Below the pieces are notes generated by a model that was given only the letters and a program-made list of their open reading frames with translations, ran no database searches and had not been told where the DNA came from. Positions 7,848 through 9,750 of a stretch of 64,000 nucleotides of DNA are shown in pieces (the stretch's first letter is position 1; each line of letters starts with the position of its first letter). The position numbers and the translations under genes are program-made. The DNA is taken from NCBI RefSeq assembly GCF_003334305.1, contig NZ_QOWS01000015.1; one strand, 5' to 3'. This stretch comes from Escherichia coli. GTDB lineage: Bacteria > Pseudomonadota > Gammaproteobacteria > Enterobacterales > Enterobacteriaceae.

Positions 7848-8036
7848 ATGGGCAAAGCAACGTATACCGTGACCGTCACCAATAACAGCAATGGCGTTTC
7901 TGTCGATTATGAAACAGAGACGCCGATGACTTTGCTGGTGCCAGAAGTGGCGGCTGAAGTGATAAAAGATTTGGTGAATACCGTGCGTTCTTATCCGGTG
8001 CGCCGTAAAACCCCGTCCTTCAGGGCGGGGATATAA
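7848..8036 (+). CDS. yoaG: Small protein YoaG; its 3' end may overlap the left end of the IS element
   Basis: 62-aa ORF starting 4 nt after the yeaR stop; the last codons run through the IS-type hairpin at 8011-8030. Confidence 0.7.
   Translation: MGKATYTVTVTNNSNGVSVDYETETPMTLLVPEVAAEVIKDLVNTVRSYPVRRKTPSFRAGI
8011..8030 (+). repeat. Candidate left-end subterminal hairpin of the IS (ccccgtcc-ttca-gggcgggg)
   Basis: 8-bp stem with one T.G pair and a 4-nt loop; near-identical to the hairpin at 9713-9732. Confidence 0.55.
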
Positions 8037-8051
8037 GGCGCGGTTTTCCAC

Positions 8052-8483
8052 CTAACCAGGTGTTTGCTGTTGTTCAATGTATTGGCGGATGACGGATATT
8101 GGCGCACCTCCGCAGCTACTGGCAAAATAGCCAGGACTCCACAAAACGCCTTTGTAGTAATACCTGACTGCAATATCTGGTCGATCTCGTCGCAGTAACC
8201 TACCCGATACGCCTTTGAGGCTGTTTACCAGACTGGATATCGCCAGTTTGGGAGGATAGTTAATTAACAAATGGACGTGATCTGGTTCGCCATCCATTTC
8301 AACAAGTTCAGCTTCAAAATCAGCACATACATTTGAAAAGTAAGTGCGTAGTTTTTCTGTCGCGTCATGGTCAAAAATCTGGAGTCGGTATCTGGTGACA
8401 AAGACCAGGTGAACATGCATCAGGAAAACACAATGCCTTCCACGCCGGATATCGGTTTCTTTTTTCACAGACCAAAGTATCAT
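8052..8483 (-). CDS. tnpA: IS200/IS605-family HUH Y1 transposase TnpA
   Basis: HVHLL (HuH) motif and C-terminal catalytic Tyr context (RQYIEQQ); 143 aa. Confidence 0.9.
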   Translation of the reverse strand: MILWSVKKETDIRRGRHCVFLMHVHLVFVTRYRLQIFDHDATEKLRTYFSNVCADFEAELVEMDGEPDHVHLLINYPPKLAISSLVNSLKGVSGRLLRRDRPDIAVRYYYKGVLWSPGYFASSCGGAPISVIRQYIEQQQTPG

Positions 8484-8490
8484 TTGACCT

Positions 8491-9699
8491 GTGAAACGAT
8501 TACAGGCATTTAAATTCCAGTTAAGACCAGGTGGTCAACAGGAGTGTGAAATGAGGCGCTTCGCAGGCGCATGTCGTTTCGTTTTCAATCGTGCTCTGGC
8601 ACGTCAGAATGAGAATCATGAGGCCGGTAATAAATACATCCCTTACGGGAAAATGGCTTCCTGGCTGGTTGAGTGGAAAAACGCCACTGAAACGCAATGG
8701 CTTAAAGATTCGCCCTCACAGCCATTGCAACAGTCACTGAAAGACCTTGAGCGGGCTTACAAAAACTTCTTCCGGAAGCGGGCTGCTTTTCCCCGATTCA
8801 AAAAGCGGGGACAGAATGATGCATTCCGCTACCCGCAGGGCGTAAAGCTCGATCAGGAAAACAGCCGTATTTTTCTGCCGAAACTGGGCTGGATGCGCTA
8901 CCGGAATAGCCGTCAGGTCACGGGTGTTGTGAAAAATGTCACGGTCAGCCAGTCCTGCGGTAAGTGGTACATCAGTATTCAGACAGAAAGTGAAGTATCC
9001 ACTCCGGTTCACCCTTCAGCATCAATGGTCGGGCTGGATGCTGGCGTGGCTAAACTCGCCACGCTGTCAGATGGCACAGTCTTTGAGCCTGTAAACAGTT
9101 TTCAGAAAAACCAGAAGACGCTGGCGAGACTTCAGCGACAGTTAAGCCGCAAGGTCAAATTCAGCAACAACTGGCAGAAGCAGAAACGCAAAATACAGCG
9201 ACTGCATTCCCGTATCGCAAATATCCGCAGGGACTACCTTCACAAAGTCACAACGACCGTCAGCAAAAACCACGCAATGATAGTCATTGAGGATTTGAAG
9301 GTCAGCAACATGTCAAAGTCAGCAGCGGGTACGGTCAGCCAGCCGGGGCGCAATGTCCGGGCAAAATCAGGTTTAAACCGTTCGATACTGGATCAGGGCT
9401 GGTATGAAATGCGCCGCCAGCTTGAGTACAAGCAGCTCTGGAGTGGCGGTCAGGTGCTTGCTGCTCCGCCAGCGTACACAAGCCAGCGTTGCGCGTGCTG
9501 TGGTCATACAGCGAAAGAAAATCGCCTGTCACAAAGTCAATTCAGATGCCAGGTATGTGGATATACAGCGAACGCCGATGTAAACGGCGCTCGTAACATT
9601 TTAGCGGCGGGGCACGCCGTTCTTGCCTGTGGAGAGATGGTGCAGTCAGGCCGCTCGTTGAAGCAGGAACCCACCGAAATGATTCAGGCGACAGCCTGA
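8491..9699 (+). CDS. tnpB: TnpB (IS605 OrfB-type RuvC-like RNA-guided endonuclease)
   Basis: 402 aa; RuvC-I (GLDAGV), RuvC-II (VIEDL), CxxC...CxxC zinc finger (CACCGH...CQVCG) and RuvC-III (NADVNGARN) all present; GTG start at 8491. Confidence 0.9.
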
Positions 9700-9750
9700 A
9701 CGTAGCAGGGATCCTCGTCATTCAGGGCGTGGAGGATGTCAAGACACGGA
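9560..9750 (+). ncRNA. Candidate omega-RNA (right-end RNA) overlapping the tnpB 3' end and the IS right end
   Basis: Inferred from the established architecture of IS200/IS605 TnpB loci; no transcript evidence; boundaries are a guess. Confidence 0.3.
9713..9732 (+). repeat. Candidate right-end subterminal hairpin of the IS (cctcgtca-ttca-gggcgtgg)
   Basis: Same loop and near-identical arms as the hairpin at 8011-8030; lies 14 nt after the tnpB stop. Confidence 0.55.

Follow-up and report, generated by a model that had tools for sequence, protein, structure and literature searches.

A 64,000-nt stretch of Escherichia coli DNA (contig NZ_QOWS01000015.1 of assembly GCF_003334305.1; hereafter the window) carries at positions 7995..9742 of its + ('top', active) strand an element that, judged by its sequence, is a structurally complete isoform of IS609, an insertion sequence (IS) of the IS200/IS605 family (IS605 group). 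The explanation that we hold with high confidence is that this complete IS609 represents an old insertion into the 3' end of yoaG, whose TnpB nuclease and omega-RNA are likely functional and whose TnpA-driven mobility is probably reduced. The element is an ordinary one, already known and located at an already sequenced and annotated site, and it has little weight as a discovery, as IS609 is annotated in K-12 and both of its genes are named by RefSeq. With its exact ends, its TTAT target and its predicted guide, it nevertheless offers a natural system in which to test whether TnpB homes to a polymorphic chromosomal site, one that is occupied in 1099 and empty in 4318 sequenced genomes.

Over all 43,986 bases compared, the window shows no difference from strain A7 (CP028767), and the element is 100% identical to the copy in that strain. 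Its 1748 bp equal in length the K-12 MG1655 feature 'insertion sequence:IS609' (1503161-1504908), which contains the yncK pseudogene and insQ (ydcM) at ydcL/ydcO, and the two sequences align without gaps across all 1748 bp with 32 substitutions, an identity of 98.17%. The RefSeq label on the identical-length tnpA of a sister copy is 'IS200/IS605-like element IS609 family transposase'. The equal length, the gapless match to the K-12 element and this name led us to call the element IS609. By the ISfinder convention, isoforms share at least 95% nucleotide identity with their reference; with the K-12 annotation taken as the reference, the window copy is above this limit. The sequence features that define the IS200/IS605 family are all present, namely a Y1 HUH TnpA, tnpB as the second gene, subterminal palindromes and no terminal inverted repeats, as are insertion 3' of a tetranucleotide without duplication and a conserved cleavage tetranucleotide at the right end. 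An earlier note on this DNA had placed a tnpA plus tnpB element of this family at 7990-9745; that assignment was confirmed, and comparison with genomes having an empty site fixed the exact ends at 7995 and 9742.

The empty site, as found in strain C11 and in K-12, reads ...CGTTCTTAT|GACACGGAAAAC..., with the right part starting GACACGG. Comparison of occupied and empty sites revealed neither a target duplication nor the loss of any base: the element lies 3' of TTAT and its last bases are GTCAA. This TTAT tetranucleotide (7991..7994, + strand) belongs to the flanking DNA, within yoaG codons, and constitutes the left cleavage site as well as the predicted target-adjacent motif (TAM) of TnpB. The K-12 site is uninterrupted, in agreement with the earlier note, which expected no IS at this locus in K-12, and the alignment to K-12 and other E. 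coli genomes that it had proposed did define both the empty site and the target motif abutting the left end. Its placement of the insertion between yoaG and yeaQ had to be abandoned, since the left junction falls within the yoaG reading frame.

The insertion modifies the product of yoaG. Native YoaG has 60 residues and the C-terminus ...VRSY-DTENEHDVCGW, whereas the window contains a chimeric open reading frame (ORF) of 62 codons (7848..8036, + strand), in which residues 1-49 are native and the final 13 (PVRRKTPSFRAGI) come from the IS left end. Eleven native end codons are thus exchanged for 13 IS-encoded codons, with the stop at 8034-8036, and the displaced yoaG 3' end (DTENEHDVCGW plus the stop) is found at 9743..9778 on the + strand. 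At least 1000 contigs in the public databases encode exactly this chimeric protein, and annotators should be aware that the YoaG C-terminus is altered in occupied strains. At window position 7971, in yoaG and 24 nt upstream of the insertion point, there is a strain-private T, at which another occupied strain and two empty-site strains have C. The empty-site strain C11 otherwise has the flank haplotype of the occupied strains, unlike K-12.

The population sample comprised 5426 complete E. coli genomes, searched by megablast. An IS609 match was found in 5015 of them and at least 80% of the element in 4859, with a median of 2 places per genome and a maximum of 9. For the yoaG site, a contiguous reconstructed empty site was recovered in 4318 genomes and the left junction in 1099, which together account for 5417 of the 5426. 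Within the element, one single-nucleotide polymorphism (SNP) separates the window from the common yoaG-type copy, a C for T at 9464 that produces the change V325A in TnpB. Five chromosomal copies, located at yoaG, at ydcL/ydcO, at gltX/yfeD, at a tetR-like gene adjoining ytfB and at yfaY/yfaV, were compared; each is exactly 1748 bp long, follows TTAT and ends in GTCAA, and their pairwise difference is 1.3-2.5%. More broadly, TTAT precedes all eight IS609-type copies with a recovered left end (five chromosomal and three plasmid copies, at eight loci) and is also present 5' of an Enterobacterales relative (L129), and TCAA ends all nine copies with a recovered right end, the ninth being a Salmonella plasmid copy (L006) represented by its GTCAA end only. 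No near-identical second copy marking recent movement was seen: strain A7 has two places, and the compared copies differ by at least 1.3%. The numbers of occupied and empty sites, the divergence between loci and the single SNP separating the window from the common yoaG copy indicate that the yoaG insertion is old and vertically inherited, being carried by about 20% of sequenced E. coli. The five copies are likewise old insertions fixed at their loci, and not a recently active family. IS605-group elements have been reported in >90% of E. coli genomes, with about 2 copies each (PMC9956272). The view that this element is a rare feature, and the main accessory one of the window, was therefore not sustained, given that IS609 is present in K-12, most of it in 4859 of the 5426 genomes and the same insertion in 1099.

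Derivatives lacking tnpA, made up of the left end, tnpB and the right end (about 1.32-1.34 kb; L004, L005 and L007), are common on plasmids. These plasmid IS609-type derivatives gave 1805 matching records, 863 of them from Klebsiella at about 78% identity, and one derivative lies between a lysozyme gene and a head-processing gene, apparently on a P1-like phage-plasmid.

The left end of the element (7995..8040, + strand) has an outer stem, GCGCC (8000-8004) with GGCGC (8036-8040), around a candidate guide AAAA (8007-8010) and the left subterminal imperfect palindrome (8011..8030, + strand), which reads CCCCGTCC-TTCA-GGGCGGGG with one T-G mismatch; this layout of outer stem, guide and hairpin was also found in relatives. 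With 7 Watson-Crick pairs and one G-T, the left hairpin is a strong one, and the 49-nt left-end stretch folds, as single-stranded DNA, at -14.1 kcal/mol (z -3.0). The right subterminal palindrome (9713..9732, + strand), CCTCGTCA-TTCA-GGGCGTGG, has 5 Watson-Crick pairs, one G-T and 2 mismatches, the broken pairs T9715-T9730 and A9720-G9725 lying beside the family-typical T-G. It is preceded by the candidate right guide GGGAT (9708..9712, + strand), proposed by analogy with IS608, and followed by TCAA (9739..9742, + strand), the last four bases of the element and, according to the junctions and to the geometry of IS608, the right cleavage site. Both hairpins share a 14-nt core, CGTCNTTCAGGGCG, which the 64-kb window contains at no other place; by chance, 0.07 occurrences would be expected. 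In the K-12 copy the right hairpin, CCACGTCC-TTCA-GGGCGTGG, forms 7 Watson-Crick pairs plus the family-typical T-G, and the corresponding 42-nt stretch folds at -7.7 kcal/mol (z -2.7), whereas the left end is weakened by a G-to-A change; the window copy shows the reverse, a strong left and a weak right end. In 46 of 52 distinct right-end variants taken from other bacteria, 7 or 8 of the 8 right hairpin pairs are formed, compared with 6 in the window copy.

The earlier description of two near-identical hairpins flanking the genes was correct for their positions, strand, TTCA loop and core but not for their near-identity, as the right one has two broken pairs. We also considered whether the hairpins could be native, REP-like (repetitive extragenic palindromic) chromosomal sequence, an origin that the earlier note had named as one that would speak against its reading, and rejected it because strains with an empty site lack both hairpins. 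The right-end allele of the window is identical to that of the O157:H7 copy next to yfeD (gltX/yfeD), which is otherwise 2.2% divergent; an element with this allele must therefore have inserted at least twice.

The bases just 5' of the hairpin feet are AAAA at the left and GGAT at the right end (GAAT in most relatives), and GGAAT precedes the right hairpin in 49 of the 52 distinct right-end variants. At the left guide position, more distant relatives that insert after TTGAT (L016 and L030) have CAAA, and those that insert after TTAT (L003, L004, L007, L115, L124, L125 and L129) have AAAA. This co-variation of target and guide would be expected if the guide reads the target, like the co-variation engineered in IS608. 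As for orientation, the + strand of the stretch, which matches the minus strand of K-12 at 1.88 Mb, shows a positive GC skew in 7 of 8 segments, and the top strand is therefore the lagging-strand template. This is the orientation favoured by the family.

The two genes are divergent, with start codons 7 bp apart. tnpA (8052..8483, - strand) encodes a Y1 HUH transposase of 143 aa that matches Pfam Y1_Tnp over model positions 1-121 of 121 (E 1.4e-40) and NCBIfam transpos_IS200 with 142.8 bits. It bears the motifs HVHLL at residues 69-73 and RQYIEQQ at 133-139, and its H69/H71 and Y135 align with H64/H66 and Y127 of IS608 TnpA (2A6M, 2VJV); ISDra2 TnpA also aligns. tnpB (8491..9699, + strand) encodes a 402-aa member of the RNA-guided endonuclease family, with the Pfam domains HTH_OrfB_IS605, OrfB_IS605 and Cas12f1-like TNB, and scores 384.8 bits against NCBIfam guided_TnpB, for which the cut-off is 100. 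Residues 3-376 align with the ISDra2 TnpB structures (8H1J, 8EXA; E 2e-55), placing D183, E267 and D363, found in the motifs GLDAG at 181, VIEDL at 265 and NADVNGARN at 361, on the RuvC triad, and C334, C337, C353 and C356, from CACCG at 334 and CQVCG at 353, on the zinc finger. What the earlier note had read from the letters was thus borne out for both proteins: a Y1 transposase with its HVHLL motif and RQYIEQQ tyrosine, a TnpB of the RNA-guided nuclease family with its RuvC residues and paired CxxC motifs, and two uninterrupted genes, with open reading frames and full-length Pfam and NCBIfam matches. A scan for sigma-70 promoters and terminators was uninformative, with 2 promoter-like sites against 3.6 expected.

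The fate of the two genes differs among the five chromosomal copies. A clean tnpA of 143 aa is present only in the window copy and in the F9792 copy; the K-12 gene has an internal stop, and the tnpA stop codon is lost in the K-12, O157 and TC_EC10 copies. The ratio of nonsynonymous to synonymous substitution rates (dN/dS) ranges from 0.35 to 1.5 for tnpA, on very few changes, and from 0.15 to 0.41 for tnpB; these ratios rest on small counts, and some of the divergence arose before the insertions did. K-12 InsQ carries C336Y in its first CxxC, a position that is intact in the TnpB of the window; the latter has the strain-private change V325A at a residue that is Val in relatives and in ISDra2. 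These data would fit a tnpB that is kept while tnpA decays, in line with the current view that TnpB outlives its transposase. The TnpB/omega-RNA of the window copy is likely functional.

The region 9623..9742 (+ strand), which covers the tnpB 3' end and the right end, is conserved and structured and is the predicted core of the omega-RNA scaffold. With a 19-mer from the coding tail of tnpB, TGAAGCAGGAACCCACCGA (9659-9677), a scan of one genome per species recovered at least 120 loci with the unchanged sequence, many of which are multi-copy, in beta- and gamma-proteobacteria, actinobacteria, Verrucomicrobia and Nitrospira; 3' of the 19-mer these loci have in common a variable hairpin, GGAAT, an 8-bp hairpin and AGGATGTCAA. 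A single-sequence fold of 9560-9742 gave a z of -2.1 and an unstable centroid, and an alignment of nine close copies held too little variation for covariation, so that 26 diverse examples from different phyla were used instead for a comparative test with RNAalifold. This alignment yielded 22 pairs in five helices, which in the window include 9626-9630/9663-9667, 9634-9636/9654-9656, 9679-9681/9701-9703 and 9712-9720/9725-9733 (+ strand). Paired cells amounted to 95.8%, against 83.1% in shuffles, and none of 500 shuffles was as good; when the 3' partners were slid by 1-3 columns only 41-49% remained paired. Compensatory changes were found in 14 of the 22 pairs, and the U-G pairs, some invariant and others frequent, agree with the + strand. 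Helices 1, 2 and 4 are located in the coding tail of tnpB, 5' of the hairpin to which TnpA binds, and are attributed to the predicted omega-RNA scaffold. The RAGATH-18 model (RF03064) matched 9626-9669 with 29.5 bits, below its gathering threshold of 44.9; filing the RNA under an Rfam family was rejected, this sub-threshold match being the only one, and the RNA seems to belong to an omega-RNA/right-end class without a curated model.

According to the rule established for ISDra2 TnpB, the guide consists of about 16 nt beyond the element end and the TAM is the left-flank motif (PMC8612924). Applied here, this rule predicts the 16-nt guide GACACGGAAAACGAAC (9743..9758, + strand), a piece of flanking DNA that is unique in the window. 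TTAT followed by GACACGGAAAACGAAC spells the empty yoaG site, so that TnpB would be expected to cut any chromosome from which the element is gone, as in the homing model put forward for TnpB (10.1101/2023.03.14.532601, PMC10690162).

The mechanism that we propose rests in each of its steps on homology to IS608 and ISDra2. TnpA would bind the left and right subterminal hairpins on the + strand when this is single-stranded at the replication fork, and would cut 3' of TTAT on the left and 3' of TCAA on the right, freeing a single-stranded circle that could reinsert 3' of another TTAT without target duplication. The occurrence of copies at five or more loci with junctions typical of the family, and a top strand that is the lagging-strand template, speak indirectly for such single-strand 'peel and paste' transposition by TnpA, which R34L and the right hairpin make doubtful for the window copy. 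Transcription of tnpB would run rightwards; the 3' end of this gene would fold, together with the right end, as the omega-RNA scaffold, and read-through into the flank would supply the guide of about 16 nt (GACACGGAAAACGAAC). The resulting TnpB-RNA complex would cut TTAT plus the guide sequence, that is, the empty yoaG site left by excision, and recombinational repair from the sister chromosome would restore the element.

Several results weigh against this explanation. In TnpA, residue 34, part of a K/R-Y-R-R (YRR) motif, is changed from Arg to Leu (R34L); it is Arg in 118 of the 120 cluster representatives of relatives, in the four other IS609 copies and in the three crystallised homologues aligned (IS608 TnpA and two archaeal-type proteins). 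At the right end, the 42-nt stretch shows no advantage in folding over its shuffles (-3.1 kcal/mol, z -0.4), and among the 26 relatives the window copy has the only U-U cell at its column pair. On the RNA side, no omega-RNA family of Rfam was detected at the gathering threshold on the window or on ten relatives; helix 5, the right hairpin, may be conserved as the DNA bound by TnpA, as RNA, or as both; and the omega-RNA and its guide are predictions. Finally, IS609 gave zero new insertions in mutation-accumulation lines of K-12 (PMC5009759), and literature searches on InsQ and on IS609 in connection with TnpB brought up no functional work on this element. The K-12 copy was unmoved in those lines, yet the K-12 tnpA itself carries a stop codon.

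An exact 86-nt segment with the R34L change is present in 659 records, and this change is therefore old within the yoaG lineage; from its conservation we infer that position 34 matters and that R34L may affect TnpA. Because of R34L and the weakened right hairpin, TnpA-driven mobility of the window copy is probably reduced. A reading of the weak right hairpin as proof of immobility was softened in view of the same allele at a second locus. Hence, of the earlier claim that the element is complete and potentially mobile, completeness holds, whereas mobility is doubtful given R34L, the two broken right-hairpin pairs and copies that are each at fixed loci.

Among the alternatives, the one that retains most weight, although we judge it unlikely, is that the window copy is a fully active, autonomous IS609 in which R34L and the right-end substitutions are neutral. 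Its ORFs, catalytic residues and ends, as well as the guide-like and cleavage tetranucleotides, are intact; its right-end allele is common to copies at two loci, and 6 of the 52 right-end variants in other bacteria also have no more than 6 of the 8 pairs. Against it, R34 is almost invariant, and no near-identical second copy that would mark recent movement was seen among those compared, strain A7 having only two places.

That the copy is instead a frozen relic, with ORFs still open but TnpA inactive, the right end unrecognised and TnpB drifting, and simply never removed, is an unlikely reading. The substitution at a near-invariant Arg, the two broken right-hairpin pairs, the private V325A where relatives and ISDra2 keep Val, the decay of sister copies (the tnpA stop and C336Y in K-12, and the tnpA stop codon lost in K-12, O157 and TC_EC10) and the immobility of IS609 in the K-12 mutation-accumulation lines all point in this direction. 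Nevertheless, both ORFs are full length after about 2% divergence, the catalytic residues and the four Cys are intact, the tnpB dN/dS of 0.15-0.41 argues for purifying selection, and the occurrence of the right-end allele at an independent locus (gltX/yfeD in O157) implies at least two insertions.

A more speculative proposal, to which we assign a rather low probability, extends to all fixed E. coli IS609 copies: these would no longer be mobile but would persist as self-guarding loci, tnpA decaying, through R34L in the window copy, a stop codon in K-12 and a lost stop codon in others, while tnpB remains under purifying selection. If true, the yoaG omega-RNA would be aimed at the empty allele of about 80% of E. 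coli, and in recombination between strains the insertion could behave like a homing or gene-drive-like allele, or could hinder allelic replacement. Domestication of TnpB for a role in the host, such as that of a TldR-like RNA-guided regulator, is very improbable: purifying selection on tnpB while tnpA decays in several copies, together with an insertion fixed in a large lineage, might suggest it, but the RuvC triad is intact where the known TldRs are reported to have lost theirs (PMC10705468), tnpB still lies within complete IS ends, the five loci have no common neighbour gene, and the guide predicted for each insertion is nothing more than its flank.

Elsewhere in the window, ynjI (35430-36341, + strand) appears shortened, with an ORF of 303 aa; for strain A7 the RefSeq annotation of this gene records a frameshift. 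The only Rfam match above threshold in the window is the small RNA ES036 (CssrF) at 56765-56807 (- strand), with 42.9 bits against a gathering threshold of 37.6. No tRNA genes were found in the 64-kb window.

In comparison with known systems, the closest is the K-12 IS609, which has the gene layout, TTAT target and GTCAA end of the window copy. The K-12 element differs in its locus (ydcL/ydcO), in its tnpA stop and in the C336Y change of TnpB, whereas the window copy, at yoaG, has an open tnpA and an intact CxxC; in addition, K-12 has the better right and the weaker left hairpin, opposite to the window copy. A TnpB designated 'IS609' was purified but was not the active hit (PMC12781874).

IS608 of Helicobacter pylori resembles IS609 in its Y1 HUH TnpA (E 2e-18), in which the HUH residues and the Tyr are matched, in having imperfect subterminal palindromes on one strand, and in inserting 3' of a target tetranucleotide, located 5' of the left end, without duplication. 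In both elements the right cut, at TCAA, lies 10 nt beyond the foot of the right hairpin on its 3' side. IS608 is nonetheless distant, with only about 30-35% protein identity; its target is TTAC instead of TTAT, and its left site lies 19 nt from the hairpin foot instead of 16 nt. Its tnpA and tnpB are co-oriented, whereas those of IS609 are divergent. IS608 TnpA cuts 3' of TTAC, 19 nt 5' of the left hairpin, and at TCAA, 10 nt 3' of the right one; recognition of each site relies on base pairing with four guide nucleotides that immediately precede the hairpin foot, and the protein contacts an extrahelical T in both hairpins (PMC3201880). A mismatched T is kept in both IS609 hairpins, comparable to the extrahelical T of IS608, and by the same analogy the tetranucleotides of IS609 are candidate guides.

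The TnpB of Deinococcus radiodurans ISDra2 (8EXA, 8H1J, 8BF8) shares with that of IS609 the aligned D-E-D triad and zinc finger, and its guide RNA (reRNA) likewise derives from the tnpB 3' end and the right end; its TTGAT target is found in distant IS609 relatives. The two systems differ in the TAM, TTGAT in ISDra2 and the predicted TTAT in IS609, and in the sequence class of the omega-RNA. With respect to RAGATH-18, the outer stem CCUGU/GCAGG and the internal loop of GGA and GUUGAA match the ends of the model, but the inner part is much shorter in IS609 and the score is below the gathering threshold, so by the Rfam criterion the IS609 RNA is not a member of this family.

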